Shown: piece by piece, positions 1 to 64,000 of the stretch | How positions within the stretch are numbered: the stretch's first letter is position 1 | How the letters are laid out: the number at the start of each line of letters is the position of its first letter | From: Streptosporangiaceae bacterium | GTDB taxonomy: Bacteria; Actinomycetota; Actinomycetes; Streptosporangiales; Streptosporangiaceae | DNA length: 64,000 nt | Direction of reading: 5' to 3' | Assembly: GCA_052143655.1 (NCBI GenBank) | Contig: JBKQSL010000045.1 | Span: forward strand, 3,793-67,792 | Program-made: the position numbers and the translations under genes | The notes under the pieces: model-generated | Database searches by the model: none | Told to the model about the DNA's origin: nothing | What the model saw: the letters and a program-made list of their open reading frames with translations, nothing else

Positions 1-29
1 TCACGTACGTGTGCCAACTGGGCTGAATG

Positions 30-125
30 CTAGCCGTGGCAGCGGGGGGCCGTCGCCAAGCCGACCGCGAGCGCCAGCCCGGCTGCGCAGAGCGCAAAGA
101 CTGTACTGATCCTGTGGCGGTTCAT
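30..125 (-). CDS. Short signal-peptide ORF (31 codons); probably the 5' part of a secreted-protein gene that is frameshifted or runs off the window
   Basis: ATG at 125. MNRHRISTVFALCAAGLALAVGLATA looks like n-region + hydrophobic core + AxA-like site. Stop at 30-32 comes right after a homopolymer (plus-strand G6 at 44-49); removing one base keeps the frame open to position 1. Confidence 0.3.
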   Translation of the reverse strand: MNRHRISTVFALCAAGLALAVGLATAPRCHG

Positions 126-206
126 CAGAACCCCCAGTAGCCCCAGCTCGTGACGTACAGCGAGTGCGGTGCGGCCAGCGGCTTGGGCTGGGTCGGCCCA
201 GGACAG

Positions 207-600
207 CTACATGTCGTGGTAGTAGTACCGCCCGTCGTGCCGCCAGGTGTTGCCCGTGGTCACCGTCACCGGGACCGTGTAGTACGGGCAGTCGACCATC
301 GGCGTGCAGCCTGCGCGGACCGCATGCAGGTAGCCCTTCACTGTGGCCGCGCCTGTGTGGTTGTACGGATACCAGTGCAGGTCCGTCAGGAACGGGGAAC
401 CGCCCTGCCCGAAGAGGATCCGGACGGGCTGATCCGCGAAAGTCCAGGCATGGGAGTCATTCAAGACCACCCCCGGGGCATTTGTAGTTCGTGCACTGGG
501 GCAGCGGGACGGCCTGTACGGCGGTCAGCGGAGTTAAGGCGCCGGCGAGCAGGGCGGCAACAGCGAAGAGCACTGCTGCCCACTTTGTGATCCTTATCAT
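207..600 (-). pseudogene. Small secreted protein gene with a 1-nt frameshift in a homopolymer (or assembly indel)
   Basis: SD-like gaggggg ~9 nt before ATG at 600. MIRITKWAAVLFAVAALLAGALTPLTAVQA signal peptide frame stops at 457-459. The next frame (207..470) continues VVLNDSHAWTFADQP... Span is 394 nt = 3n+1, and the junction is the ccccc/gggg run at 470-478. Confidence 0.45.
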
Positions 601-659
601 GATATCTACCCCCTCATGGCTCAGGCTCCGACGCTTGAGCGCCCCCGAATTAGGGACGG

Positions 660-1223
660 ATGTCCTGCCCCCGGACGGACCGAAGGCCCGGCGGCAACAT
701 GCAGGCGCACGATAATGAGCCAGTGGCAGCCAGGAAGCCCGCACGACCGCCCATCACCAGCATCCCGCTCACCAAGCGCACCGGTTACATCCGGTACGAG
801 CTGAACTGGCAGGCCACCGCTTTGCGGATGCAGTATGAGCGCCTGGTTCACCATCTCGGGCTGTCCGAGAACGAGCGGCTTCTCGGCTACATGCAGTCGG
901 TCACCGACCTGGATTACCTGGTCATCACCGCGCACCGGATCTACCGCCTCGCAGACATTGCTAAGGGCTACGGGATTGACCGGGACGGCGAGCTGAAGGA
1001 CGTCATCGGCGCGTTCCGCCGGGACTGGAAGCCGAAGCTGATCAAGATCCGGGATGCGCTGGAGCATCTGGACCACGGCTCGGTGGGCCTGCTGCCGTAC
1101 GAGGGCGACGGCGTCATCACGTTCGCGTCCATCCTTGGTCCCATCGACGTCCACGAGCTGTACAAGGCGGCGGATGAGCTATGCCAGGCGATCAGCCGCG
1201 CTGTCGCGTCTTGCGGGCCGTAA
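660..1223 (+). CDS. Hypothetical protein, possible HEPN-like nuclease fold (R-x4-H motif)
   Basis: Uninterrupted 187-codon ORF (alternative ATG at 699). Contains KLIKIRDALEHLDHG, i.e. R-D-A-L-E-H, matching the HEPN Rx4-6H signature. No other recognisable domain. Confidence 0.55.
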   Translation: MSCPRTDRRPGGNMQAHDNEPVAARKPARPPITSIPLTKRTGYIRYELNWQATALRMQYERLVHHLGLSENERLLGYMQSVTDLDYLVITAHRIYRLADIAKGYGIDRDGELKDVIGAFRRDWKPKLIKIRDALEHLDHGSVGLLPYEGDGVITFASILGPIDVHELYKAADELCQAISRAVASCGP

Positions 1224-2030
1224 TCAGACTTGAGCGAGTAACTACCTCCCGGGTTGTCTCACTATGCGAAACGGTACTTTGCGCAACCAGATAGTTGTGA
1301 AGCACCAGCAGAAGTGCGGAACTGCACTGCCCGTTCTCTTCTTACGCATCAGCGCGCTCGGGCACCCCGTCACCCCCGTGACGTCACTGAACTCTGCGCT
1401 TCGGTCGTAGACCCCTCATCACCAGCGCACTGGCGCATAGCCCTTAGTTACTCGGGAACCGTTAATGAGGCGGGGAAACATCGTGTACGCCATACGCAGT
1501 CAATCAGGTATTGCGCACGGCATAGGCAGCAGCGCCACCGGTAAGGGAAATAGGCATGAACTACCGGCACCACTACTTCGGCTACCTGGACTGTGGGGCC
1601 TGATCATCGTCGCCATCGGCGTCGCCGGGATCAGGTTCACCTGGTACAGGAATCGCAGGTATGAACGCCAGCAGCACGACAGCCCAGGTCGCGAGTAAGA
1701 ACGTGCTGCGCCTCCAGATTCCCGGCCGACGTGCGCAGCCCGAGGGCGGGGCCTGCTACCTACTGCTACTGCAGCGCATAGAAGAGCAGCAGATAAGCAA
1801 GCAAGAACTGCTAAACCACGAGCAGAAGCAGCGGTACGAGAGTCGAACCGGCGACACACTACTAGGACCAGGAACTCTCTCCAACCTGGTGAGCAGCTCA
1901 ATCAAGCCCTCATCCCCTCTTCCACCTGGTCACACTCGCAGTGATCATTAACGTTAATTCTCCGTAGTGGCGGTAATTGGCAGTAATCAGCACATCATTA
2001 TCCTGTCTAACGAAGTTCAGTGCCCTATTT

Positions 2031-2150
2031 AATGGCTGATGAATAACACGCCACGCCGCCCCTCAGCCTCTATTTATGGCATCAGCATGGCAATGATCCC
2101 AATGCCATTAACTCTAATGGCATTAATTCATAGGGGTCATTGCCGTTAAC
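2031..2150. repeat. Cluster of ATGGC(A/T) / TAATGGCATTA motifs (operator- or iteron-like)
   Basis: atggct 2032-2037, atggca 2076-2081, atggca 2087-2092, aatgccatta 2101-2110 (reverse orientation), taatggcatta 2115-2125 (5-bp arm palindrome), cattgcc 2138-2144. Lies in an AT-rich stretch at the 3' end of ORF 2123..2323. Confidence 0.4.
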
Positions 2151-2323
2151 CGGGTGCGCACCCGCATATTGGCGACGGGCAGCCAGTCATTAAGCGTGGC
2201 CAGTCGCAGCCTGCCCGGCCTCATCGACTCCAGCAGCGCCAGCACGTCCTGGTCGTCAGCGCTCCTGCCCGCCTCGCGCAGCCTCTTCTCATCCACCTGC
2301 ACCGTGATCGTGATAATGGACAT
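2123..2323 (-). CDS. Small (66 aa) hypothetical protein, ribbon-helix-helix/VapB-antitoxin-like N-terminus
   Basis: ATG at 2323 inside ORF 2123..2425. MSIITITVQVDEKRLREAGRSADDQDVLALLESM resembles the T-x-x-x-D-x-x-L-L-x-E-A start of small RHH antitoxins. The opposite-strand ORF is Ser-rich shadow. Confidence 0.4.
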   Translation of the reverse strand: MSIITITVQVDEKRLREAGRSADDQDVLALLESMRPGRLRLATLNDWLPVANMRVRTRLTAMTPMN

Positions 2324-2367
2324 CAACCCCCTGACCTGGGAGTTTACGGCGCTATGCACCGAGTGGC

Positions 2368-2787
2368 ATGATGATGCCCGTGCATGAGCCGCACCAGGAC
2401 TGGCACGACCTGCGCTGGTCAGCATGGGTACCGGTCGAGGACATCGAGCGGGTACCAGCCAAGCGAGGCATCTACCGGCTGCGCTGCCAGTCCAGCAAGG
2501 ACAAGCTCATCTACGTGGGCATCAGCGACCGGCTCAGCTCACGGCTGAACGGGTTGCGTCGTGCTCTGCCGAGGGCCCGGCAGCATATGGATGACCAGAC
2601 CTATGTCGGCCACTCAGCCGCCCGCTGCGTTGTCCAGCACCAGGATCGGGGCGAGAGCGTCGAGGTGAGCTGGGCAGAGATCGCCGGCATCGACCGGCGC
2701 GAGCTGATGGGCCTGGAGGTAGACCTGATCGCCGCGTGCCGGGCGGCGTACGGCCACAGCCCAGCGTGCCAGTTCCACGGGGAGTAG
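2368..2787 (+). CDS. GIY-YIG domain nuclease (stand-alone, 139 aa)
   Basis: RGIYRLRCQSSKDKLIYVGIS = GIY-(x11)-YVG motif, followed by conserved Arg cluster (SRLNGLRR) and acidic residue (GLEVDLI). Confidence 0.75.
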   Translation: MMMPVHEPHQDWHDLRWSAWVPVEDIERVPAKRGIYRLRCQSSKDKLIYVGISDRLSSRLNGLRRALPRARQHMDDQTYVGHSAARCVVQHQDRGESVEVSWAEIAGIDRRELMGLEVDLIAACRAAYGHSPACQFHGE

Positions 2788-3271
2788 CCCTGATCAAAGC
2801 AGCATTACGGGACTAACCTCCAACGTTGTCAACGGTGTGCAGCATGATCCTTTAGGAGTTTTGGCCGGTCAGTATGGGTGTTAGGCGCCCAGGGCGCATA
2901 GGCGGTTCCTGGGGCCTTGACGGGCGCCACAGCGCCTGTCAGGGGGGGCGGGCCATCAGCCGATATAGGCACTGAGGCGCTACAGGGGCACACGGAGGCC
3001 ATTACGGCGATAGTCAAGTTTAGGCAAAATCGAAGAGGCTACCGGTGCGCAGGGTGATGGCAGGACTACCCGTAATTGCGGTTTATTAATTAAATCCCCA
3101 TAACTTTATAGGACATAGATAGTTAGCACAGGTAGTTAGTTTGAAACAAGAAGGGGGCACCGTTAAGCCGGTCTTGCCGAGGAAAGGGCACCAGGAGATT
3201 TTCGCAGATCCCGCCTTCCACCCAGGTGACAGTGCCCGGATTCTGGACAGTACGGGGCTTATCCGGGGGGG

Positions 3272-3973
3272 TTACATATCGCCCATCAGCCCGCGCAGCC
3301 TCCTGATCCGCTCGTCAAGGTAGCGGGCCGCCTCGTAGATTTGCTCAGCGGCAGCGGCCGGGCTCGCTCGATCAAGCATGATCGCCGCATCCATCAGCGC
3401 CTCCACCGCTCCCGGCCTCAGTGTCCTTTTCAGCGTGTCAGCGGCCAGGTACAGGGCGTCGGCCGTGCTGGGATTGATATGCCGGGCCGCCTGGTGCAAG
3501 ATCAGCGCGGCTTCAGGGTCTATCAGCTCGATCTCCGCCAAGGCGTCACGGATCGCCTGCTTAGTCGCCTCGGTCCCCTGCTGGATCATGTCGCGGAGGG
3601 TGTCTTCGGTCAGGCCGGACATCCCCTTGAGCTGAGCAATCGGGCCTTCCTCACGGCTGGCCTTCCACTGTTCGAGGACCTCGATGGGGTAATCCTCGGG
3701 CTTCACCCGGTCCACGTACTGATGGTGCGGAGTGCAGAGGTAGATGAGGTTGCACCAGTGCCGCCGGTCCTCGTTGCTCATCGCCGGCACATACCGGGGG
3801 CCGTTGGGCCGGGCTGCCCTGATATGGGCGATCTCCAGGTTGTTGACAGGAGTGCCGTTGACAATAACGGTGACCGGCGCGCTGCAAGGAGGATCGGGCC
3901 AGTAGCAGGTCCCCTGGCCCAGGGCTGCAAGAGCTGTCAGCGTAGCGCGGGTATATCCGCGCGGATCAGGCAT
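3272..3973 (-). CDS. HNH endonuclease domain protein with C-terminal all-helical extension (233 aa)
   Basis: GTCYWPDPPC...NNLEIAHIRAARPNGPRY...NLIYLCTPHHQYVD = Cys pair + H-N-H core. C-terminal ~130 aa are Ala/Leu-rich helical. Confidence 0.8.
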   Translation of the reverse strand: MPDPRGYTRATLTALAALGQGTCYWPDPPCSAPVTVIVNGTPVNNLEIAHIRAARPNGPRYVPAMSNEDRRHWCNLIYLCTPHHQYVDRVKPEDYPIEVLEQWKASREEGPIAQLKGMSGLTEDTLRDMIQQGTEATKQAIRDALAEIELIDPEAALILHQAARHINPSTADALYLAADTLKRTLRPGAVEALMDAAIMLDRASPAAAAEQIYEAARYLDERIRRLRGLMGDM

Positions 3974-4013
3974 TACATCCTCCGGGAATGTCTAATTGAG
4001 ATTCACGGACCGT

Positions 4014-4463
4014 TTAAGGACGGAGAATGCTGATCACGCCCACTACAGCGCTTACGCATCCTGCTGTCACGCTGATTATTCCTGCGATGCCTCCCATTTG
4101 CTCGATCTTGGTTTGTTCCAGTCTGACCAGAACGGCCACGTCACTAGGAGGGTGGTCATGAAGAGAGCGAGCTTGCCCCGGATTTTTCGTCAGGTTGCCG
4201 GCGCGCATGCGGTGCCAGCCCAACCGCGCGTACATTTTCGCGAGCGTATGATCCGTGCTTCCTCTGCTACAACCGAGTAGCAAACCGTTGACGCTGTTCT
4301 TGCATGGCTTTCTGTTGAGCGTAGTCACACCGCATGTCGTCGGGAGACTGAACAGTATCAGCCATCCAATGATCCCGGCCACCGCTCCTGTAGATAGTAA
4401 GCCCCACCCGATATTACCGGCAGCGAATGCCAGCACAGCGCACACGATGAACCCGGCAAGCAA
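4014..4463 (-). CDS. Membrane protein (149 aa), first gene of a two-gene unit with the HNH gene
   Basis: Two N-terminal TM segments (FIVCAVLAFAAGNIGWGLL, AVAGIIGWLILFSL), Cys-containing loop, C-terminal TM (GIAGIISVTAGCVSAVVGVISIL). Same strand, 40 nt upstream of HNH gene. Confidence 0.6.
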   Translation of the reverse strand: MLAGFIVCAVLAFAAGNIGWGLLSTGAVAGIIGWLILFSLPTTCGVTTLNRKPCKNSVNGLLLGCSRGSTDHTLAKMYARLGWHRMRAGNLTKNPGQARSLHDHPPSDVAVLVRLEQTKIEQMGGIAGIISVTAGCVSAVVGVISILRP

Positions 4464-4635
4464 TCCTAAAAGTGTGATGCCTTTTGCCGTGGCGTCATCT
4501 CCTCGGGCTCAGCCCGCTGTGTCATAGCACCCCCTGCGCTCGCCAGGAATAATGCACCGCACTCAGGTACCGGGGTAACTCTCCCGATGAACGGCTCATG
4601 CTCGGAATCTAACCCGGCCTGGAGATTCCGGCTAG

Positions 4636-4770
4636 TGGCTCTTTAGCGTTGCGCAGAGCAGTGCCGTAGGGGCGCTGGATGAGCTGGACCGGCTGGCGTC
4701 GCTGCTGGAGCGCGGGCTGCTGACCCGTGAGGAGTTCGAGGCAATGAAGGCGAAGATCATCGCAGGCTGA
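4636..4770 (+). pseudogene. SHOCT-domain remnant (no start codon)
   Basis: Open frame after TAG 4633-4635 reads ...ALDELDRLASLLERGLLTREEFEAMKAKIIAG*, a typical SHOCT C-terminal motif. No ATG/GTG/TTG in frame, so it is likely the tail of a disrupted gene. Confidence 0.45.
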
Positions 4771-4827
4771 GCGCGTCCCGGCAGCCTGATTTGCCCGGCG
4801 TGCACTGGCGGGCGGACCATCGGGGTC

Positions 4828-5712
4828 ATGGGCAACTTCTCGAAGCACCCCAGGGCTACGGAGCAGCAGCCGCCTGACGCGCCCGCGCTGCCGTCCGGCA
4901 CGAAGCCAGTGCCCCTTAGCGGCCCCGTGCACGATTCGTCCATGACAACGGGGAAGTACGTGCCCAGTCGCGATCCACGAAGGCCGCCTAGGGAGAAATT
5001 TCCGAGTAGCAGAGAGCGCACCGACCGGAAGCCCTCGTTTGAGCGGGAGGTCCCGATCGAGCAGATGCCACCTGAGGGCAAACAGGAGATGGCGCCTGAG
5101 GTCAATCAGGAGATAAAGCCGGTAAAGGATGCGTCCAGCAACGGGCAGCTACGCAGTCCCGCGACAGGTCCCGTGACGAAGGGCGTCGAGGACACGGCCG
5201 TCAACTGCCTGACTTCGGCACTGGAGACGGTTGCGAAACTCGCCGTCCCCCATCTCGCCCCGGTCGTCACCATGTGCGAGTTCGTGATCAAGGGCATCGA
5301 CGCGTGGAAAGGCCTGGACTCTACCGGGGGAAAGTCGATCACACTTCCGGTGCCGATTCCTGGCCTACCTGGTGACTTTAGCCTGAACGTGCGTTTCGAC
5401 CTGACCGAGGACTCCAACCACTCAGGCTTCTCGGCGTCGGTCAGCCCGCCTGGCCCCCTAGCCGGCGCGTTCTCGCTCAAGCCTCTGGATCAGCCAGGCA
5501 GCCAGCAGCAGGCGGAAACTACCAAGGCGGGCGCAGAGCCCATCAAACCGTACGCCGGGTTGCCCCTTGACCAGCAGCGGGTGTTGCGCGCCGCTGAGCA
5601 GCAGATCGGGCCCGAGCTGGCTGCGAAGATGCCGGACCGGAGTCGGCGGCGCCTGCTGCTGGGCTACGACCCTGAATTGCGGTTCTGTGTGTGGGCGTGC
5701 GCTGAAGCCTGA
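4828..5712 (+). CDS. Hypothetical protein (294 aa), disordered charged N-half, unknown C-terminal domain
   Basis: Long ORF with coding-like composition; no recognisable motif. Confidence 0.5.
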   Translation: MGNFSKHPRATEQQPPDAPALPSGTKPVPLSGPVHDSSMTTGKYVPSRDPRRPPREKFPSSRERTDRKPSFEREVPIEQMPPEGKQEMAPEVNQEIKPVKDASSNGQLRSPATGPVTKGVEDTAVNCLTSALETVAKLAVPHLAPVVTMCEFVIKGIDAWKGLDSTGGKSITLPVPIPGLPGDFSLNVRFDLTEDSNHSGFSASVSPPGPLAGAFSLKPLDQPGSQQQAETTKAGAEPIKPYAGLPLDQQRVLRAAEQQIGPELAAKMPDRSRRRLLLGYDPELRFCVWACAEA

Positions 5713-5876
5713 GGACAGGCCGGGCATTCGTGGCCGCCTTGCGCAGGTGCCCCTCCTCGTCGGGTCATGCCGCGTCCGTCAGATTGAGGCGGTCCGGTGG
5801 GGTGCTGGCGGGCACCGGCACGGAGGCGCCCGTAACTACGAGCGGTAACGCCGGCCGGGTAGTACCAGGTGGGGTG

Positions 5877-6085
5877 CGGGAGACGTCGCGCGGGACATCG
5901 TGGGGGACGCGTGGGACATGCGGGACATGTCCCACACTGGACGCGAGCGGGACGACCCTGAATTAATGAATTGCTATACGCGCGGAAGCCACGATGATGA
6001 TTTTTAATACTTTCGGGGCTGGCAATGCATGAGCGATCATTGCAGCGCGCTCTTGGCGATGTCCCACTGTCCCACCATGTCCCAC
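5877..6085. repeat. Two opposed iteron arrays (GTGGGACAT / ATGTCCCAC) flanking an AT-rich core; candidate origin of replication of the island
   Basis: Left: gggacat 5892-5898, ggggac 5903-5908, gtgggacat 5911-5919, palindrome gggacatgtccc 5922-5933, gggac 5949-5953. AT-rich core ~5958-6020 (gaattaatgaattgctatac...gatgatgatttttaatac). Right: atgtcccac 6059-6067, tgtcccac 6068-6075, atgtcccac 6077-6085. Immediately 3' of the replicase gene. Confidence 0.55.
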
Positions 6086-6117
6086 TCCCTGTTTTATTAA
6101 CAAATTCCGGTGCCCAG

Positions 6118-8496
6118 TCACGCATCCGCCACCGCCGGGTGGTAGGTATCGTCGTCACTCAGCGTGACCTTTTCTTCGTCCAGCAGCAGGTCCAGCGCGT
6201 CATCGACGTACTTCCTGTCGCGGCTGGCCGCTGCGTGCTGCAGCAAGCGGCGCTTCATCGGGCCGTCCTTCTTCAGCTTCCGCACGATGACGCCGGCCAC
6301 CCGCTGCACCTGCTGGTCCGCGTACTCCTCCTCGCTGGCGCGCACGCGGGTGGCGGTGAGGACAGCGCCCTCGGCGTTGAGCGCGTGCCGCGCCCGCGCC
6401 GCCCGCGCGTTCTTCTCCTGCACCGCGTCGATGCACTTCTGGCGGGTGTTGCGGGACACCTCCATGAGGATCCCCGCCAGGTCCCAGTCCTCGTCGCTGA
6501 TCTCCCCCGGCTCTTCGCTGGAGATGATGGCGATGGCGGCGGCGGCCTTCAGCCGGCACAGCATCGCGTGGCCTTCCAGCCCGGCCTCCTTCCCGGAGTT
6601 GCGCGCGTGGTGATCGGCTGCCACTTCAAGGATGGCCTTGTCGCACACGCGCAGGTCGCGGTAGGTATCCAGCTCGCGGATATGCGGCGGGGCGGCCATG
6701 TCCAGCGTCTTGATCTCGCTGTCGCCGTTGCGGATGCGGGCGAGCACAGCGTCAGGATTGAACGGCGGCCCGTCCGGGTCGGTGCCCGGAAGCCATAAGA
6801 ACCGCTGGGGGGTGCCGCCGGCGCTGTCGTCCAGCAGCACGGCGGCGACCTCGGGCTGGATCGCGCAGACCAGAGTCAGCCGGTAGGAGTCCTGCTCCAC
6901 CGTCAGGTTGCGGGCCTGCTCGGCGTTGGTGAACCCGATGCGCTCCCCCATCCAGGCCGACCGGAGCAGCGGCAGCAGCGTCGCGCCCTTCCGCTCGGCC
7001 AGCCGGGTGATGATCTCCACCTCCTCGACGGCCACGAGCAGCGTGTCGGTGATGCGCTTCAGCTCCCCGCCTTCACGCCGGACCATCGCGCGGACGATGC
7101 CTTCCCCGGTGCCCGCGTTGCTGATGTGCGCCACCCCGGGCACCATCTCGGCGGCGACCCGGGCTGCGTTGCCCTTGCCCTGGCCGGATGAGCCGACGAT
7201 CCCGGCGAACATGTTCAGGCTCTTCCGGGTCCCGACGATGCCGGGGATCGTCAGCCGGTGGTCGGTCAGCGCGACGGCGCGGGCCATCACGCAGCCGAGC
7301 AGTGCCCACGGGGGGACGCCGCGCTCCCGTGCCACGTCCCGGATGATCTTTAAGTTGGGCCGGGCGTCCCAGAACTCAGCTTCCCGGTCCGCGTGGTCAA
7401 GCGCCGGGTAGCGGATCTTGCCGTCGCGCTCCAGCGCCTCCTTGCTCCACTTGCGCGCGTCGTCGGGCAGCTCGTCTGCGAACTTCGCCGCCACGCGGGT
7501 GATCTTCTTGCGGAGATCATCGTCAGTGAACGGATCGTCGGAGCGGGCGTCGGGGTTATCCCGAGCGGTGATGTCGCAGATCTGCCGCACGGTGGCGAAG
7601 ATCTTGGACTGGTCATGGGTTTTGCCCCATATGCCCCGGATAACCCGCGTGATGGTGATGTCGTGCGGGAGGGGGAACGGGATGCCACCGGCCAGTAGCT
7701 CCTCGAACCCCGGCAGCGGCTCGCCGCTGTCGTACACGGCGTCGGATGACGGCTTTGACCACAGGTCGGTGATGAACTGCGCCAGCCTGCGCCCGGAGAC
7801 GTCGCCGACCGGCGGCGGCCCGTCCGGGAACCGCACCCAGCGGTACGGCCGGACCACCCCGTCCGCCTTGGACTTCTTCTCGGTCGGCGGGATGATCAGC
7901 ATCCCGATGCTCTCGTTGCCGTCCCGCGAGCCCTTCAGGTCCAGCCCGGGAAACTTGTCCTGCCCGAACCCGTCCTTGGACCCGATGCCTAACGGCGCGG
8001 TCAGGTAGTGCCGGCCTCCGCTGGGAGTGACCGTCTCCCCGTACACCGTGGGCATCTCGCCGCCGAGATGGTCAGCCAGCTTGTCCAGCGAGCCGGGGCA
8101 CTTATAGGAGTCCTCGTCCAGCCCGTTGAAGATCTTCATGACTGCGCACAGGCCCATGTTCCGGCCGGGCTTCCACCGGTCCACTACGGCCGGGTCGCCC
8201 TTGGCCTGCTTCCAGGAATCGCCGCCGGCGTACCTGCCATGATCATCGAAATAGCAGATGAACAGCGGCACGCCCCAACGCGCGAGTTGCCTGGCACGCT
8301 CCAGATCCTCACGCTGCTGGCTGGTTAGGCCGCTGCCGCTCAAGATCTCGCCGGCGGCAAGCTGGTGGGCGCTCTTCCTCACCGGGCCACCCCCGCCCGG
8401 GTCGGGCTGGTGCGGGGGCAGTGGCCTGGTAATAACCTGTTTCTCCGGTAATTCCTGAACGCCCGGCCGGTAATTGGTCTGCTGTACAATATTCAC
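6118..8496 (-). CDS. Bifunctional primase-polymerase (PrimPol) fused to DUF3987-like P-loop helicase/replicase (792 aa)
   Basis: PrimPol motifs: GLDED (DxD), VTPSGGRHYL (sGG-H), GLDLKG...IIPPT. Central/C-terminal Walker A AGIVGSSGQGKGNA. Confidence 0.85.
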   Translation of the reverse strand: MNIVQQTNYRPGVQELPEKQVITRPLPPHQPDPGGGGPVRKSAHQLAAGEILSGSGLTSQQREDLERARQLARWGVPLFICYFDDHGRYAGGDSWKQAKGDPAVVDRWKPGRNMGLCAVMKIFNGLDEDSYKCPGSLDKLADHLGGEMPTVYGETVTPSGGRHYLTAPLGIGSKDGFGQDKFPGLDLKGSRDGNESIGMLIIPPTEKKSKADGVVRPYRWVRFPDGPPPVGDVSGRRLAQFITDLWSKPSSDAVYDSGEPLPGFEELLAGGIPFPLPHDITITRVIRGIWGKTHDQSKIFATVRQICDITARDNPDARSDDPFTDDDLRKKITRVAAKFADELPDDARKWSKEALERDGKIRYPALDHADREAEFWDARPNLKIIRDVARERGVPPWALLGCVMARAVALTDHRLTIPGIVGTRKSLNMFAGIVGSSGQGKGNAARVAAEMVPGVAHISNAGTGEGIVRAMVRREGGELKRITDTLLVAVEEVEIITRLAERKGATLLPLLRSAWMGERIGFTNAEQARNLTVEQDSYRLTLVCAIQPEVAAVLLDDSAGGTPQRFLWLPGTDPDGPPFNPDAVLARIRNGDSEIKTLDMAAPPHIRELDTYRDLRVCDKAILEVAADHHARNSGKEAGLEGHAMLCRLKAAAAIAIISSEEPGEISDEDWDLAGILMEVSRNTRQKCIDAVQEKNARAARARHALNAEGAVLTATRVRASEEEYADQQVQRVAGVIVRKLKKDGPMKRRLLQHAAASRDRKYVDDALDLLLDEEKVTLSDDDTYHPAVADA

Positions 8497-8584
8497 TAGG
8501 ACTTGACTCCTCGCGGTGGTTTCGGTCTACCTCTGGTTAGGACGGGTGAACGGGCCGGGGAACGCCTCCCCGGCCCGGTTCCCT

Positions 8585-8926
8585 TTAGGCAGCAGCCACC
8601 AGCCGCTTAGCGGCGATGGATGGTACGAGAAGGTGCACGATCTCGTGCTTGTTGTGGCACCGGCCGCCACATACGCTCTTCGGCAGTGAGATTTCGGCCA
8701 AGGCCGACTGCGTGTCTTCGAGGCTGGGCCAAAGGCTGACCGATAAGACCCGGCACCATGCGAGGACGGCCCACTCACCCTCGCCCGATACCCAGCAGTG
8801 CCTCGGCCACTGGCACCGGGCGGCGACATTGTAAGTCTGGTGCTTTACCGGGCAGCGCCGGTGCGATAGCGGCCGGTATAAGTTCTCGGCCTCGGGGTTG
8901 AACAGCTTGTCGTTGTCGAGGTACAT
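8585..8926 (-). CDS. Hypothetical Cys/Trp-rich protein (113 aa) between xis-like and replicase genes
   Basis: Same-strand ORF in the xis->replicase transcription unit; no recognised family. Confidence 0.45.
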   Translation of the reverse strand: MYLDNDKLFNPEAENLYRPLSHRRCPVKHQTYNVAARCQWPRHCWVSGEGEWAVLAWCRVLSVSLWPSLEDTQSALAEISLPKSVCGGRCHNKHEIVHLLVPSIAAKRLVAAA

Positions 8927-8996
8927 TGATGGTCTCCAGTTAGTTGATGTCCGACCAGGCCCGGGGCTCCACCCCCGGGCTTAGTCATTTCTGGGG

Positions 8997-9212
8997 TCAG
9001 GCAGCGATCAGCCGCCCTGCCGTACTGGTGTCCCGCTCCCGCTGGGCCAGCCAGGCGTCCACCTCGCTGCGCCGGTAGTAGCGCTTGCGCGGGGTCAGCA
9101 GGAAGCTCGCCGGGCCGAACTGTTCGCGGCGCCAGCGGTCGAGCGTCTGCCGGGACACGCCGAGATAGTCCATTACCTCGGCGGGGGTCATGAAGTCCGG
9201 GCTGTCGTGCAT
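8997..9212 (-). CDS. xis: Excisionase-family / AlpA-like helix-turn-helix DNA-binding protein (71 aa)
   Basis: FMTPAEVMDYLGVSRQTLDRWRREQ...RKRYYRRSEVDAWL is the MerR-superfamily excisionase HTH pattern. Confidence 0.8.
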   Translation of the reverse strand: MHDSPDFMTPAEVMDYLGVSRQTLDRWRREQFGPASFLLTPRKRYYRRSEVDAWLAQRERDTSTAGRLIAA

Positions 9213-9300
9213 GAAACCTCCTCAGGGGCTCACTTATATGGTAGCGGCGGTGAGCGTGAAAAAGGTAACGCGGGCCCCGCGCTGACCGCCGGGCGTGCTT

Positions 9301-9353
9301 ATGTACCCCACATTGTTGAGGGCAAGAGAATATGTACCCCATATGAGGTACAT
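9301..9353. promoter_or_regulatory. Repeated ATGTACCCCA boxes plus inverted GGTACAT in the divergent promoter region upstream of xis (operator candidate)
   Basis: atgtacccca at 9301-9310 and 9332-9341. The second copy forms atgtacc-ccatatga-ggtacat (9332-9353). Related gtaccc at 9364-9369. Confidence 0.4.
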
Positions 9354-9635
9354 GACCGGGGCAGTACCCGAGTTCACCGGCTCTCGGTGACGTTCTGACT
9401 ACGCTGCGCCGGTCGTTCCGGGAAAGTACCCGCCTGGGTTTGACAACGCCTAAGCCGCGCCGGGTACGGTGCCCCTGACAAGTGAATGAGGGAACGCGGA
9501 GAGCGGTCCATCCTGGATTTAAGTCCCTTCGCGATCCGTGTTCTCGGGCGTGCGTGGGGCGCGCTACTGTAAACACCGAGCCGATGGGGGCCCCCACACC
9601 CCATCGGCTCCTCATGCATTTAAGGCAGTATCACG

Positions 9636-10166
9636 GTGAATCAGTTTCCGGTCCGCCCGTATGTCGGCGTCGGGCTCCCCATGTCATCCAGGACCGCGCA
9701 TGTGATCGAGGGCGCGGTGATCGGCGTGGTGGCGGGCAACGCGCTGGCCCGCTGGCCGCGCCTGCGCTACGTCGCCGCGATCATCTGCCTGCTGCTCGCC
9801 GCGTACTTCGTCGTGGCGGGGATCCACTTCGGCGAGGCTGCCGGCAGCTTGGTGTACGCGCTCGTGCTGGCCGGCATCGCCGCGCTGTTCATCCGGTCGG
9901 GTTGCAAGGGCATCGCGAAGATGAAGCTGAACCGCACACCCGGATGGATGGCCGCTCTGCCGACCGGTCAGGCAGTGCCTTCGGGCCCCGACGTCAGCTT
10001 CAAGATCACGAGCGTGGTCCCGGACGAGGCGACGGTCCGGTCCGACGCCGCCCGCACCTGGGCGACCGCGATCCTGGAGTTGGAGAACGGGCACACGCAC
10101 TCGGCGCTGCTGGAGTCAGATGGCCGCCAGGTGCGCTGGCAGGCCGCCCCGGCAGGTTCGTGCTGA
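9636..10166 (+). CDS. Membrane protein (176 aa)
   Basis: GTG start (alt ATG 9681). Three hydrophobic helices (AVIGVVAGNALA, YVAAIICLLLAAYFVVAGI, LVYALVLAGIAALFI) and a soluble C-terminal part. Confidence 0.5.
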   Translation: MNQFPVRPYVGVGLPMSSRTAHVIEGAVIGVVAGNALARWPRLRYVAAIICLLLAAYFVVAGIHFGEAAGSLVYALVLAGIAALFIRSGCKGIAKMKLNRTPGWMAALPTGQAVPSGPDVSFKITSVVPDEATVRSDAARTWATAILELENGHTHSALLESDGRQVRWQAAPAGSC

Positions 10167-10244
10167 ACTGGCACGCTACTCCATTCCCGCCGAACCTTTC
10201 TGAACTACTTCGTACAGGCGTACCATTCGCCTTGGGGGACGTTC

Positions 10245-10856
10245 ATGGCGCTACGTTTCAATCCGCCGCCAGGCTGGCCGCCTGCACCTCCCGGGTGGAC
10301 GCCGCCGCCAGGCTGGAGTCCCGATCCGTCGTGGCCGCCGGTACCTCCGGGCTGGCAATTGCTGGTGCTGGACGCGGCGCCCAGCGCGCAGCAGCCAGCC
10401 GATAGTCCCGAGCCCCTGGTGCAGCAGCAGCGGGCAGTACCCGTCACCAGCAGCTCGGTCCGGCCGCCCTTCGTAACACGCGGGTGGGGCAGGCTCAGTC
10501 CCTGGGCTAGGCCATTCGCGCTGATCGGTTCGGCGGTCGTGCTGATCGTCGTCGTTGTAGTGCTCGCGCAGCCGGGCACGCCGTCGCCGCCTCCCGGCGG
10601 CTGGTACGCGGCGGGCGTGCAGTACGAGCACGCCAACGACGTGGCGCAGGGCAACGCGCGTCTCATCGGCCCGTTCAGCATGCTGGGGCACGAGTGCCGC
10701 CAGCAGCTCGCGTGGGTTGAGGCGGGTCACCCGACGCTGGTTCACAACCCGCCGGTGCCCCCGCTGAGTGCTAAGCAGAGCTGGCTAAACGGCTGCCAGG
10801 CAGGCTATTTGCACGACCATCCAGACCAGCAGGTCATTAACGGGCTCTTCCAATGA
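10245..10856 (+). CDS. Single-pass membrane protein with N-terminal PPGW repeats (203 aa)
   Basis: NPPPGWPPAPPGWTPPPGWSPDPSWPPVPPGW, then TM ALIGSAVVLIVVVVVLA. Stop overlaps next start (ATGA 10853-10856). Confidence 0.6.
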   Translation: MALRFNPPPGWPPAPPGWTPPPGWSPDPSWPPVPPGWQLLVLDAAPSAQQPADSPEPLVQQQRAVPVTSSSVRPPFVTRGWGRLSPWARPFALIGSAVVLIVVVVVLAQPGTPSPPPGGWYAAGVQYEHANDVAQGNARLIGPFSMLGHECRQQLAWVEAGHPTLVHNPPVPPLSAKQSWLNGCQAGYLHDHPDQQVINGLFQ

Positions 10857-11665
10857 ACCGCCTGATCTGGCCCGTTGCGATTGTCCTGGCGGCGCTGATC
10901 CTCTCGGCAGGGGTGCTGACCGCGTACTCGCTGCGCCACCATCCGCCCGCCAGCAACGGGCCTAGCCACCCTGCTGTGGCCGCTTCGCCGTCCGCCTCGT
11001 CACCGCACCCGATTAACGCCTCCAAGGCGGCGTCAACCCTGGAAATGGACCCGACTCTTGCGCTGCGCTATGCCGAGAACGGCGTCGGCGGGTGCCTGCA
11101 ACAAGCCTGGGACAACGCGGGGTATGCCAACATGTTCGATGAGTACGCGGGCAGCGGCGTGGTGCAGTTCAGCACCGGCACCCAGCAAGATCCCACCGGC
11201 AGCACCCAGGCGCGCACGCTGATCTCCGTCACGGTTCACCAGAACGGCACGCTATCCGCGAATGCCGCCCTGGAGCACTGGGGTTGCCAGCCGTACCGCT
11301 TCCGCCCACGGGGCGGCGTCACGGCTCCGTCGGCTCCGACCATGCCCCGGCCGCCCGGCCTGGACAAGTCCGGCCCCCTTGACGTCGGCTGTGCTACCCA
11401 GGGGAACACGGCAACCGTGACGTTCTACAACCCGGGCAGTTCCACCCAGACGGTCGGGTCATTCACGCTGGACTGGGAGTTCTACAACAGCGACCCTGAC
11501 AACGGAACGCCGCAAGGCGAGGACACGTACAGCGGCCGGTGGCCCGTCAGCTCCACCAACATCGCTACGGTCACCCTCAGCGTGCCAGCGATGCTGTCGG
11601 GCGACTCCTCGTGTGCGGTAGCTGGATGGAGTCAGTACGGGGTCTCGGTGCAGCCGGGCGGCTGA
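10853..11665 (+). CDS. Signal-anchored extracytoplasmic protein (270 aa)
   Basis: MNRLIWPVAIVLAALILSAGVLTAY anchor; translationally coupled to upstream gene; no known domain. Confidence 0.6.
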   Translation: MNRLIWPVAIVLAALILSAGVLTAYSLRHHPPASNGPSHPAVAASPSASSPHPINASKAASTLEMDPTLALRYAENGVGGCLQQAWDNAGYANMFDEYAGSGVVQFSTGTQQDPTGSTQARTLISVTVHQNGTLSANAALEHWGCQPYRFRPRGGVTAPSAPTMPRPPGLDKSGPLDVGCATQGNTATVTFYNPGSSTQTVGSFTLDWEFYNSDPDNGTPQGEDTYSGRWPVSSTNIATVTLSVPAMLSGDSSCAVAGWSQYGVSVQPGG

Positions 11666-11707
11666 CTCAGCTCGCAACAAGCTGTAACGCGACTACGCCG
11701 CCGATCC

Positions 11708-12292
11708 ATGGACGTTACGAAGCTCTTGCTGGACGCCATGGATAAGTACAACTCAGACGGCGGAACCTATGACGAACCGCTGGCGGAGGTCATATCCCGG
11801 GTCCGGGTGAACGGCTGCATGACCAAGCTGGACCTGCTGGCGATGATCACCTGGAAGCGCATCCGCACCGCCGCGCCGTGGGTTTACGACCTGCTGACCA
11901 CTCAGGATGCGAAGGTGCGCGACTGTACCGAGGCGGCGTTCCAGCCCGGGTTGTCCGACCAGCAGCGCATCGACGCGCTGAAGGACATCCCTGGGTGCAG
12001 GGGCGGCGCGTCCATGGCCACGGTCGCGCTGTGCGCATACGATCCGGTGGAGTTCGGCATCATGGATGACCGGGCACTGGATGCGCTTGAGGATGACCCG
12101 CTGGAGATAGACCTGCACCGGAGGCGCAGGGGCCTGACCTTGCGCTACCTGATCAAGGTTCGTGAACTCCGGGACATGCTGGCGCAGGTCCGGACGGGCG
12201 TCACCGCCCGCAACTTGGACCAGGCGCTCTTCGTAATTGGCGACCCGAAGCGGCGCCGGGTTACGGGGCCGAGAAGTTCGTCCGAAACTTAA
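11708..12292 (+). CDS. Hypothetical soluble protein (194 aa)
   Basis: Clean ORF with coding-like composition; no motif I can name confidently. Confidence 0.55.
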   Translation: MDVTKLLLDAMDKYNSDGGTYDEPLAEVISRVRVNGCMTKLDLLAMITWKRIRTAAPWVYDLLTTQDAKVRDCTEAAFQPGLSDQQRIDALKDIPGCRGGASMATVALCAYDPVEFGIMDDRALDALEDDPLEIDLHRRRRGLTLRYLIKVRELRDMLAQVRTGVTARNLDQALFVIGDPKRRRVTGPRSSSET

Positions 12293-12960
12293 GACCCAGG
12301 CGGCTTGTTGCGGGTGAAGAACAGGTAGAGCGTGATGGAGGTCAGGGCCCCGCCGAACGCCTGCCCTATTGGTCCCGACCCCGCTGGCGGCAGCAGGTGC
12401 AGCAGCCCGAGGTTCGCTCCGCCGACCGGCACGACGATCGTCCAGAACATCTCCCGGCTGGTCAGGCTGTGCAGCCCTTCGGTGACTGCCTTGCGCACGG
12501 ACTTCTCCAACTCAGCTGGAGTCGGAGACTTGGTGACCTCGAAGATATCGACGGCGCCGCCGGTCTCTGCCAGGACCTTCGGTTGAGGGATAGTAGTAGT
12601 GGCTTGAACGATCGCCGGGTAGACGGTGGCACTGGTCGTCAGCGTGCCCTCACCTCGCAGGACTGCCGCTGCCTGCCACACCTTCTCCACATCGCGCATG
12701 TCCACGAACTCGCTGACCTGCCGCTGAATCTCGCTGGCGTGGCGCGACAGCGACTCGATCAGGTCCTTGTTCGCCTGGTATGCCTTCAGCGCGGGCTCGG
12801 CTAGCTCGTACAGCTTTCGAACCTGCTCAGCCAGCCGCCGGATCTCCTCCTCGTCCACGGCGGCGATCCTACCGGCGCCCGGCGACAGCGCCCGGCCGTC
12901 CGGCGCGCCGGACTTGTTCTGTTCGAGTCGCTGGTGATGGCAGGGAACGTAGTTGCTCAC
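12289..12960 (-). CDS. Hypothetical protein with coiled-coil N-half and C-terminal hydrophobic segments (223 aa)
   Basis: EEEIRRLAEQVRKLYELAEPALKAYQANKDLIESL...; C-terminal FWTIVVPVGGANLGLLHLL and GGALTSITLYLFF. Stop codons of this and 11708..12292 overlap in cttaag. Confidence 0.5.
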   Translation of the reverse strand: MSNYVPCHHQRLEQNKSGAPDGRALSPGAGRIAAVDEEEIRRLAEQVRKLYELAEPALKAYQANKDLIESLSRHASEIQRQVSEFVDMRDVEKVWQAAAVLRGEGTLTTSATVYPAIVQATTTIPQPKVLAETGGAVDIFEVTKSPTPAELEKSVRKAVTEGLHSLTSREMFWTIVVPVGGANLGLLHLLPPAGSGPIGQAFGGALTSITLYLFFTRNKPPGS

Positions 12961-13032
12961 CTACTCATAGCCCCAGGTCAGGCCGTCGATTCGACACCCC
13001 GTGATGGCAGGAATCCGCAAATTCTGATGGCA

Positions 13033-13063
13033 AAGCCCCGTCCGGCTGTCCGAAACGGGGCTT
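13033..13063 (-). terminator. Stem-loop downstream of tRNA-Asn (9-bp stem, 13-nt loop; no clear U-tract)
   Basis: aagccccgt (13033-13041) pairs with acggggctt (13055-13063). Confidence 0.35.
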
Positions 13064-13089
13064 CTAGCTGGGCAAACACAATATTAAGA

Positions 13090-13165
13090 TGGCTCCCGCG
13101 ATAGGACTCGAACCTATAACCTGCCGGTTAACAGCCGGACGCTCTGCCGATTGAGCTACGCGGGA
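13090..13165 (-). tRNA. asnT: tRNA-Asn (anticodon GTT), CCA encoded
   Basis: Reverse complement tcccgcg-ta-gctc-aatcggca-gagc-g-tccgg-CTGTTAA-ccggc-aggtt-atagg-ttcgagt-cctat-cgcggga-g-cca folds as a cloverleaf; anticodon loop CTGTTAA. Confidence 0.95.
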
Positions 13166-13463
13166 CTGCACGGCGCCGAGGTGCGGTACTGGCTTGCAGG
13201 CCCTTCCTCGCCGCGGCCACCAGGGTAGCGTAGCCGGCACTATGCCGGAGCGCATGCCGCCTCCGGAGCGCATAACCCGCCGCGTGGCGGGCATGACCGG
13301 AAGGTCCGGCGCGTTTCGGGCGGGCGGCGGGAACGAGAACTCCCCGGGAACGTCCGGGACCCCGCGGCCACTCCGGGCCGGGACAGCTCAGCCCTGCACT
13401 GCCCGGGCCCGCCCCAGGCCGGCGCGGCAGTGCAGGGAACGAGACTTGCGAGAGAAGGTTTCT

Positions 13464-13823
13464 ATGCACGGCTATCGGCTCACCTTGCTGGCCGGCGTCG
13501 CCACCGGGTACGTGCTCGGCGCGCGGGCGGGCCGGGAGCGCTACGAGCAGATCAAGAAGTTCGCCCGCACCGCGGCGGATCACCCGGCCGTGCAGCAGGC
13601 GGCCGGCGCGCTCCAGGCGCAGGCCGCGGGCGCGGCCAGCAGTGCCAGGGCCCGGATCAGCGGCGAACTGCACCAGCGGGCTCAGGGCGCCCGGCAGAAG
13701 ATGACTGACCGGCTGCCGGGCCACCGGGGCGCCAACGGCTCCGCGGGCAGCCCGGGCACCGGGGAGGCAGGAAGCCCGTTCGCGGCCGCGAGCAGCCGCG
13801 CGGAGCGCAACGGCCATCACTGA
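13464..13823 (+). CDS. YtxH-like small membrane-anchored protein (119 aa)
   Basis: SD gaagg before ATG 13464. MHGYRLTLLAGVATGYVLGARAGRERYEQIKK matches the YtxH N-terminal pattern. Confidence 0.6.
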   Translation: MHGYRLTLLAGVATGYVLGARAGRERYEQIKKFARTAADHPAVQQAAGALQAQAAGAASSARARISGELHQRAQGARQKMTDRLPGHRGANGSAGSPGTGEAGSPFAAASSRAERNGHH

Positions 13824-13854
13824 CCTGGCTGGCTGACCGCCTCCCGCCCAGGGC

Positions 13855-15009
<1,155 letters not shown>

Positions 15010-63187: not shown

Positions 63188-64000
63188 GTGGACGAGATCG
63201 AGGGCGTGCAGGTCACTGGTCCGATGCGGGAGCGGTACGAGGAGATACTGACCCCGCAGGCGCTTGAGCTGATCGCCGCCCTGCAGCGCGAACTCGGGCC
63301 GCGCCGGGCCGAGCTGCTTGCTGCCCGGGCCCGCCGCCAGGACGAGCTGTCCGCCGGGGGGACGCTCGACTTCCTCGACCAGACCGAGCACATCCGGTCC
63401 GACCGCAGCTGGCGGGTGTCGCCGCCGGCGCCAGGCCTGGAGGACCGCCGGGTGGAGATCACCGGGCCGACGGACGCGAAGATGACGATCAACGCGCTGA
63501 ACTCTGGCGCCAAGGTCTGGCTGGCCGACTTCGAGGACGCCAATACCCCGCTGTGGGACAACATGATCACCGGCCAGCTGAACCTCAGGGACGCGCTGGA
63601 CCGCAACCTCAGCTTCACCAGCGAGGACGGCAAGTCCTACGAGCTGGCGCCGGATTCGGAGCTGGCCACGATCGTGGTCCGGCCGCGCGGCTGGCACCTG
63701 TCGGAGAAGCATGTGCTGGTGGACGGCGAGCGGGTGTCGGGCAGCCTGTTCGACTTCGCGCTGTACTTCTTCCACTGCGCGCAGCGCCAGCTGGACAAGG
63801 GCAGGGGCCCGTACTTCTACCTGGCCAAGTTGGAAAGCCACCTGGAGGCGCGGCTGTGGAACGACGCCTTCAACCTCGCCCAGGACCGGCTCGGCATCCC
63901 GCGCGGGACGATCCGGGCCACGGTGCTGATCGAGACGATCCCGGCGGCGTTCGAGATGGAGGAGATCCTCTATGAACTGCGCGACCACAGCGCGGGGCTG
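63188..64000 (+). CDS. aceB: Malate synthase A, 5' part (runs off window end)
   Basis: SD aaggag 8 nt before GTG 63188. [27 protein letters not shown]...[39 protein letters not shown]; open to position 64000. Confidence 0.9.

Follow-up and report, generated by a model that had tools for sequence, protein, structure and literature searches.

Organization of the gap downstream of the replicase gene

The window analyzed here, a 64-kb stretch (64,000 nucleotides, positions 3,793 to 67,792) of contig JBKQSL010000045.1 from a Streptosporangiaceae bacterium, has an overall GC content of 70.7% and opens with a low-GC island, positions 1-13000 having 64.4% GC vs 72.3% over the remaining window. In this island a 405-bp gap (5713-6117) lies between two convergent genes, a plus-strand open reading frame (ORF) at 4828-5712 and a minus-strand gene at 6118-8496, which encodes a replicase with predicted primase-polymerase (PrimPol) and helicase domains. 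The gap harbors a candidate replication origin, whose parts are, from the replicase gene outwards:

6118-8496, minus strand: replicase gene, 792 aa from a GTG at 8496 (recorded form 754 aa, with a later start)
6086-6117: AT-rich linker of 32 bp, 44% GC, from the replicase stop to the first iteron
6059-6085, minus strand: proximal iteron array A, three head-to-tail GTGGGACA(T) units, all facing the spacer
5957-6058: AT-rich spacer, candidate DNA-unwinding element, 49% GC
5947-5955, plus strand: degenerate half-site GCGGGACGA at the spacer edge, with GGGAC at 5949 and a unit match limited to GCGGGAC
5890-5935, plus strand: distal iteron array B, four plus-strand units facing the spacer and one inverted unit

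Both arrays consist of the 8-mer TGTCCCAC/GTGGGACA, read on the replicase strand as the 8-9 bp unit GTGGGACA(T). The units of array A, ATGTCCCAC (6059-6067), CTGTCCCAC (6067-6075) and CATGTCCCAC (6076-6085), start 8 and 10 bp apart, and the plus-strand units of array B, GCGGGACAT (5890-5898), GTGGGGGAC (5901-5909), GTGGGACAT (5911-5919) and again GCGGGACAT (5920-5928), start 11, 10 and 9 bp apart. The inverted unit of array B, ATGTCCCAC at 5927-5935, has the orientation of array A and creates the perfect palindrome GGGACATGTCCC at 5922-5933. The last exact 8-mer of array A is separated from the first of array B by 124 bp. Within the spacer, the sub-stretch 5957-6030 has 43% GC, and the lowest 60-bp stretch (40% GC) ranks 13 of 6394 in the window. 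It is uncertain whether the half-site GCGGGACGA counts as an additional unit.

A preliminary description of this DNA, made from the letters alone, had already reported GGGAC(AT) units and the palindrome in the left array, and three head-to-tail units at 6059-6085 in the opposite orientation, all of which are present as described. GGGACAT occurs at 5892-5898, 5913-5919 and 5922-5928, so that the reported unit positions 5892, 5913, 5922 and 5949 are correct, and only the GGGGGAC variant shifts by one base, its GGGAC lying at 5904-5908 and not at 5903. The left array, presented as running one way, does so in four units, the core-proximal one being inverted. The core is AT-rich, as claimed, relative to the genome (43-49% vs 70.7% GC), not absolutely. 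The gap, placed 3' of the replicase gene, is also 3' of the convergent plus-strand ORF, and the candidate origin, drawn over all 405 bp, narrows to 5890-6117, since 5713-5889 (72% GC) is free of repeats and probably lies outside the feature.

An exact 13-nt direct repeat, ACGACCCTGAATT, brackets the distal array: ORF 4828-5712 contains one copy (5666-5678) in its 3' end, and the second (5952-5964) lies at the edge of the AT-rich spacer. Each copy is accompanied by TGAATTGC, overlapping it at 5673-5680 in the first case and following a few bases beyond, at 5967-5974, in the second. This repeat could be a recombination scar or due to chance.

Departure from chance and non-coding nature of the gap

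Exact TGTCCCAC occurs six times in the window (both strands), with five copies within 5911-6085 and the sole copy outside the gap at position 63553. When one mismatch is allowed, 7 of the 14 window matches of the nine-mer fall within 5890-6085, and the local enrichment suggested as a check in the preliminary description is thus strong at the scale of the 64-kb window. Dinucleotide-preserving shuffles of the gap never reached five copies of any 8-mer (0/5000), the highest count being four (12/5000). Elsewhere in the window, 300-bp stretches reach 5-8 copies of G+C-rich words such as CCGCGGCC and GCCATCGC; because such words repeat at other places, the raw 8-mer count alone is not unique, and it was used solely jointly with orientation, spacer and position. 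What distinguishes the gap is that it combines a clustered rare word, in opposed orientations and in helical phase, with an AT-rich spacer and with a position outside coding sequence.

A coding explanation was rejected: the mechanical ORFs that overlap the gap lack the GC1/GC2/GC3 pattern (GC content by codon position) of the real genes in this region. The earlier statement that no ORF explains this sequence therefore holds for coding-like ORFs, although not for ORFs in the mechanical sense. Rfam gave no match at E <= 1 in 5400-6400, and tRNA alone in the whole window. A consensus scan detected one weak promoter-like site and a single terminator-like site, the latter at 6154-6168 within the replicase gene, and no intrinsic terminator inside the gap. 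On the Rfam result and the lack of an intrinsic terminator in the gap, its reading as an RNA gene or a terminator was rejected.

Domain structure of the replicase

The replicase ORF has a GC3 of 0.89. Profile searches assigned its C-terminal half to phrog_11515 ('DNA polymerase/primase', 4.8e-62) and residues 66-334 to phrog_1156 ('DNA primase', 3.2e-5), with a weak Pfam match to DUF3987 (5.9e-5, below the gathering score); its relatives carry PF09250 (Prim-Pol) and PF13148 (DUF3987). An AlphaFold model built from 30 sequences (mean predicted local distance difference test score 81) predicts a PrimPol domain (60-245), a low-confidence linker, an MCM-like AAA+ ATPase (368-660), a long helix (668-744) and a C-terminal module at about 745-790 with helix-helix-strand-strand topology, resembling a winged helix. 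The winged-helix profile matches to this module are to the RPA32 winged helix alone and are non-significant (E 0.18-1.9). Foldseek against PDB placed MCM2-7 and archaeal MCM on top (E about 1e-7 to 1e-5) and also matched the pRN1 primase 9aam (7e-5), while Rep of staphylococcal pathogenicity islands (SaPIs) was absent from the top 50 structural matches. At the sequence level, phmmer returned no match of the replicase to PDB chains at E <= 1, and the family profile none to SaPI Rep PDB entries at E <= 10. The archaeo-eukaryotic primase motifs LDED126 and SGGRH159 and the Walker A motif GSSGQGKG435 are intact, and the motif SRDR758 is present. PHROG, Pfam, AlphaFold and Foldseek thus bear out the preliminary naming of this neighbor as a PrimPol-helicase, here with a C-terminal winged-helix-like domain.

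These observations bear on the possibility that the gap has no present function, being either the decayed origin of a defunct island or a set of inverted repeats that merely terminate convergent transcripts. Such a reading would suit the convergence of genes at the gap, the failure to find an integrase or att site in the visible island, and the folded single strand, which is more stable than shuffles (z = -3.2). It is opposed by the intact replicase ORF and motifs, by near-perfect units phased by the helical turn, and by the finding that no stem-loop with a T run exists in the gap, where the palindrome is loopless. We regard the chance of this as slim.

Conservation of the layout beside related replicases

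An exhaustive HMMER search recovered 1450 representatives of the replicase family at E <= 1e-30, hosted by actinobacterial temperate phages, phage-plasmids and islands. Other searches were less productive: 7 matches in a word-indexed protein search, 4 with an alignment query, one Rhodococcus locus in a scan of genome contigs, and Nonomuraea and Tsukamurella records alone in tblastn against plasmids. The 86 loci gathered comprise 1 Rhodococcus genome, 2 Logan contigs, 2 phages (Gordonia phage Jojo24 and Mycobacterium phage Firecracker), 1 plasmid (circular, from Nonomuraea gerenzanensis) and 80 IMG/VR contigs. The analysis set (n = 79) consists of the window together with the 78 loci whose sequence covers the replicase stop and 300 bp or more beyond it. 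A locus was scored as having arrays when one 8-mer occurred at least four times (both orientations) in the first 300 bp past the stop, grouped in two clusters.

Such arrays were found in 62 of the 79 loci, and in 54 of these 62 no other 300-bp window of the same locus (roughly 86-300 compared per locus) matched the downstream count. The preliminary expectation that the arrangement would recur beside homologous replicases is thereby confirmed. Of the 59 non-redundant array loci, 53 have opposed outermost copies and 54 have two or more copies in each cluster. The first copy follows the stop at a median distance of 12 bp (32 bp in the window), the median spacer measures 121 bp (interquartile range 99-136; 124 bp in the window), and spacer GC is 0.49 vs 0.68 for the locus (0.52 vs 0.65 in the window). 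The window, with five exact copies, a 124-bp spacer and opposed outer copies, has the family layout, and its values for first copy, spacer length and GC are within the family range. The usual family pattern is right-right-left, spacer, right-left-left. Two relatives have the following arrays:

Nonomuraea gerenzanensis plasmid III (L006, NZ_LT559120.1), 5299-5480: TGTGGACA arrays, AT-rich spacer of about 100 bp, two palindromes
Gordonia phage Jojo24 (L004, MZ209302.1), predicted origin 4741-4934: CCTGGAAA arrays, spacer about 51% GC, lowest 60 bp 38%

The Nonomuraea plasmid is circular, 59 kb in size, and its arrays lie directly after an 884-aa replicase annotated as 'hypothetical', in a 690-bp stretch without an annotated gene; a terminase small-subunit gene nearby suggests that it is a phage-plasmid. 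In Jojo24 the predicted origin is situated wholly inside the annotated hypothetical gene 54 (4727-4957), so either gene 54 was called in error or the origin resides within coding sequence.

Neither metagenome nor viral contigs yielded the 27-mer of array A, and its 16-mer occurs in at least 120 loci, none of which encodes a relative of the window replicase. In three metagenome contigs, opposed arrays of GTGGGACA follow the stops of unrelated replication genes: a Prim-Pol+PriCT_2+DUF927 protein (L177, 2822-3146), a DUF5906 protein (L169, 1129-1274) and a Toprim primase with an AAA_25 helicase (L205, 1203-1331). The C-terminal tails of these three replicases gave no alignment with the tail of the window replicase. 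The layout, and even the word GTGGGACA, recurs across replicase families.

Repeat sequence, replicase tail and DnaA boxes

The repeat word varies by lineage, including GGTGGACA, GGGGGGAC, CGTCACCA, CCTCCCCA, ACCGGGTA, CGTCCGAC, TGTCCACA and others, as is expected for sites read by an element-encoded protein. With the helicase core controlled for, repeat similarity correlates with identity over the last 70 replicase residues (partial r 0.22, 0/2000 permutations), and the reverse partial correlation, for the helicase core with the tail controlled, is 0.04.

The actinobacterial DnaA box TTGTCCACA has TGTCCACA as its core. In 5 of 59 loci (L006, L007, L009, L049, L066) the repeat core is identical to TGTCCACA, and in 11 more it is one base off, which hints at a possible interplay with host DnaA in lineages with TGTCCACA-like units. 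The same counts are what would favor regarding the arrays as degenerate host DnaA boxes, with initiation, or DnaA titration, proceeding via the host initiator. The window unit TGTCCCAC, however, differs from TGTCCACA at 3 of 8 positions (ungapped), no DnaA box was found in the gap at <=1 mismatch, and in many relatives the unit is an unrelated one, CGTCACCA or ACCGGGTA for example, so DnaA is not the common reader. We consider the DnaA explanation extremely unlikely.

Arrays of short repeats, direct as well as inverted, likewise make up partition centromeres, attP arms and Streptomyces clt sites. The repeats could accordingly belong to a protein other than the replicase, as a partition centromere, integrase/excisionase arm sites (attP-like), a packaging site or a conjugative clt. 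Besides this shared form, the clt of pWTY27, located beside traA (PMC3583192), and the HTH_17 (helix-turn-helix) gene in the replicase operon lend it some plausibility. On the other hand, no par, int, terminase or tra gene lies next to the arrays, 62 loci with varied neighbors keep them at the replicase stop, and the repeat sequence tracks the replicase tail; moreover, an integrated element would have its attP split, yet both arrays are together here. On balance, sites of another protein appear very unlikely.

Functional interpretation

The repeats, oriented and phased as described, the AT-rich spacer, the position after the stop, the domain make-up of the replicase, the conserved layout and the link between repeat and tail all point the same way: positions 5890-6117 are very probably where the mobile element encoding the replicase 6118-8496 has its cis-acting replication origin. 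By analogy with SaPI Rep, Cch2 of the staphylococcal cassette chromosome mec (SCCmec) and RepA of pWTY27, the winged-helix-like C-terminal domain would recognize the 8-9 bp unit GTGGGACA(T), with units about one helical turn apart in two facing arrays across a low-GC spacer of about 100-125 bp. One MCM-like AAA+ hexamer would assemble per array and the spacer between the two hexamers would be melted, after which the N-terminal PrimPol domain may lay the first primers on the exposed strands for the host polymerase to extend bidirectionally (theta mode).

Several points weigh against this interpretation. Support for an origin is comparative and structural, not experimental. The spacer is just moderately AT-rich (43-49% GC), that is, for this genome and not in absolute terms, and the proximal array of the window is without the inner inverted unit usual in relatives, which makes the origin less symmetric. 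The link between replicase and arrays is not universal, 17 of the 79 related loci having none after the stop; they include lytic mycobacteriophages such as Firecracker, in which the next gene overlaps the stop, and most of the 17 have no comparable cluster elsewhere in the locus. The covariation of repeat and tail is modest, with phylogenetic relatedness partly controlled. Finally, the visible island yielded no integrase, no att repeat and no further mobility gene, and the element may have decayed to a remnant with an origin that has ceased to fire.

Iterons often play a dual role, as in iteron plasmids and P4 crr. In this respect the arrays could be bound by the replicase for control (autoregulation, copy-number handcuffing, incompatibility, or a second cis site like P4 crr), with the true start elsewhere, for example inside the gene or past the window edge. 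The element's left part does lie outside the window, and RepAM of pMEA300 binds 8-bp repeats inside its own gene, for which a regulatory role has been discussed (PMC2440964). No second cluster of units exists in the visible 13-kb island, though, the other exact copy being just that at 63553; an AT-rich spacer of conserved length would be needless for control sites; and the layout matches experimentally defined origins (PMC9371898, PMC3583192). A purely regulatory role is accordingly improbable, and we retain 5890-6117 as the probable replication origin.

A broader and distinctly tentative proposal is that these loci represent a widespread, formally undescribed class of origins, in which one PrimPol/MCM-like/winged-helix protein would load itself onto dyad-symmetric 8-bp iterons after its own stop. 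The repeat would then be a lineage-specific 'replicon address' set by the last ~70 residues, and in about a quarter of lineages this address would equal or approximate the DnaA-box core TGTCCACA, allowing cross-talk or competition with the host initiator; the 13-kb island, which carries a defence-type HNH nuclease without any structural genes, might represent a replicative satellite or a defence island. Literature searches turned up nothing that describes such a layout in the actinobacterial PrimPol/DUF3987 family, which does not in itself prove undescribed status. A review of integrative and conjugative elements from actinomycetes (AICEs) states that the replication role of their Prim-pol proteins is unknown (PMC2440964).

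The origin assignment provides a checkable annotation rule, namely that origins are to be sought within 300 bp after the PrimPol-helicase stop in actinobacterial prophages, phage-plasmids and islands, where present annotation gives nothing or small 'hypothetical' genes such as gene 54 of Jojo24, which spans the whole predicted origin. It also predicts which pairs of elements share replicon specificity, and it makes compact modules of one gene plus origin candidate vectors for high-GC actinomycetes. In the window itself, it marks the low-GC island beside tRNA-Asn as a mobile element, possibly a satellite, an AICE-like island or a remnant, that is, or formerly was, replication-competent.

Genomic setting of the island

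The low-GC island (1-13165) abuts the 3' end of a tRNA gene, and the other features of its visible part are as follows:

13090-13165, minus strand: tRNA-Asn
8997-9212, minus strand: small HTH_17 gene (excisionase/MerR-like; Pfam HTH_17 2.6e-13; GC3 0.88)
4828-5712, plus strand: ORF of 294 aa, convergent with the replicase gene, with no Pfam, NCBIfam, PHROGs or PADLOC match
3272-3973, minus strand: HNH endonuclease, 233 aa, matching candidate defence family PDC-M68A (8.6e-23) and HNH effector models of the CBASS type (cyclic oligonucleotide-based antiphage signaling system)

Beyond the tRNA-Asn lie chromosomal genes, including that of the DnaG primase (15171-17111); judged by eye, ORF 13855-15009 reads like a principal-type sigma factor. 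The element-boundary scan found no second copy of the tRNA-Asn 3' end at <=3 mismatches, and positions 1-14000 contain no long direct repeats. No integrase was detected among the scanned window ORFs (Pfam, NCBIfam, PHROGs; visible part of the island), nor were structural genes found in this part. Because no second tRNA end, integrase or structural genes are visible, the left boundary of the element is probably outside the window. Megablast of positions 1-13100 against phages and plasmids returned zero matches.

The HTH_17 gene heads the minus-strand operon that ends in the replicase gene and the origin, and represents context, not a part of the origin; similar small HTH genes lie upstream of the replicase gene in relatives. 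Owing to its HNH nuclease, the island seems to carry defence cargo. A membrane-protein-like ORF of 149 aa (4014-4463, minus strand) is located beside the HNH gene, and the 294-aa ORF contains a 24-bp tandem repeat (2.2 copies, 85% matches) at 5063-5114. The two most AT-rich spots of the window, 1940-2130 and 3050-3110 (30-40% GC per 60 bp), may be island promoter or operator regions; the first includes an inverted repeat, ATGCCATTA...TAATGGCAT, around 2102-2128.

Comparison with known replication systems

SaPI origins are located immediately downstream of rep, with iterons flanking an AT-rich region in opposite directions; the reader is the C-terminal winged helix of a PS2-insert helicase that loads itself, and SaPI5 has a primase fused to Rep (PMC9371898). 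For the origins of SaPIs and phage-inducible chromosomal islands (PICIs), PMC7581432 cites Ubeda et al. (2007). The region described here has the SaPI-type architecture: it is directly 3' of the replicase ORF (first unit 32 bp past the stop at 6118), and it has at least two opposed iterons per side (3 at 6059-6085 and 4-5 at 5890-5935) around an AT-rich region. Its putative initiator is itself a predicted helicase, with an AAA+ domain that matches MCM chains in Foldseek and a C-terminal module that may be a winged helix, and, as in SaPI5, a primase is fused to it. The likeness to SaPI origins drawn in the preliminary description fits the published accounts point by point (PMC9371898, PMC7581432). 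The differences concern unit length (5-6 bp in SaPI, 8-9 bp here), the host, which here is a high-GC actinomycete, the absence of visible PICI packaging or regulatory genes, and the lack of sequence similarity to SaPI Rep PDB chains (phmmer, family profile). Because no sequence homology is detectable, the replicase is an analogue or very distant relative of SaPI Rep and does not belong to the type by descent.

In SCCmec, Cch2 is a self-loading helicase, as is proposed for the window replicase, and the direct repeats that it binds occupy the intergenic stretch right behind its own gene (PMC7581432); it differs in having just three 5-nt iterons, a D5-type helicase and a separate A-family polymerase-primase. 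Plasmid pRN1 needs about 100 bp downstream of orf904, and its authors suggested an assembly of PrimPol-helicase-winged-helix proteins 3' of the genes that encode them (PMC4234260). ORF904 is likewise one multifunctional PrimPol-helicase-winged-helix replicase with an essential cis element just 3' (PMC4234260), poorly conserved in sequence and conserved in architecture among relatives. That element is, however, a 100-nt stem-loop without iterons, the helicase is of SF3 vs MCM-like type here, and the host is archaeal.

Streptomyces plasmid pWTY27 replicates from repA, repB (PrimPol) and a 300-bp region of 8-bp GTGGGAAC/TTCCCAC repeats with AT-rich parts; RepA binds this region specifically, as determined by electrophoretic mobility shift assay and footprinting, and replication is bidirectional (PMC3583192). 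Compared with that description (PMC3583192), the window shows the same layout of 8-bp repeats in both orientations, AT-rich regions and a PrimPol by the rep genes. The two systems share an actinomycete host, direct and inverted 8-bp repeats, AT-rich regions and a PrimPol in the replicon, and the pWTY27 repeat has GTGGGA in common with the window unit. They differ in that the pWTY27 repeats are upstream of repA, and in that PrimPol (RepB) and binder (RepA, 522 aa) are separate proteins.

The P4 alpha protein is a primase-helicase that uses a C-terminal DNA-binding domain to read 8-bp type I iterons, a domain organization also predicted here. The preliminary comparison with P4 ori/crr survives as a looser, conceptual likeness: P4 has two separated cis regions vs one compact dyad-symmetric locus here, and alpha combines a Toprim primase with a D5-type helicase, whereas the window replicase matches DUF3987 and PrimPol-type models, not D5_N or Toprim. 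With a single cluster, the other exact copy just at 63553, and no D5_N or Toprim match, the P4 ori/crr type was rejected. Classical iteron theta plasmids (RepA/pi/TrfA; 17-22 bp tandem direct repeats beside one AT-rich element, DnaA boxes, and a WH1-WH2 initiator without helicase activity) were rejected too, because the units are 8-9 bp long in two opposed arrays, there is no DnaA box in the gap, and the putative initiator is a PrimPol with an AAA+ domain.

The origin raises no new mechanistic question, the proposed mechanism having already been worked out for SaPI Rep. Its kind is known from SaPI, SCCmec Cch2, pRN1 and Streptomyces pWTY27.

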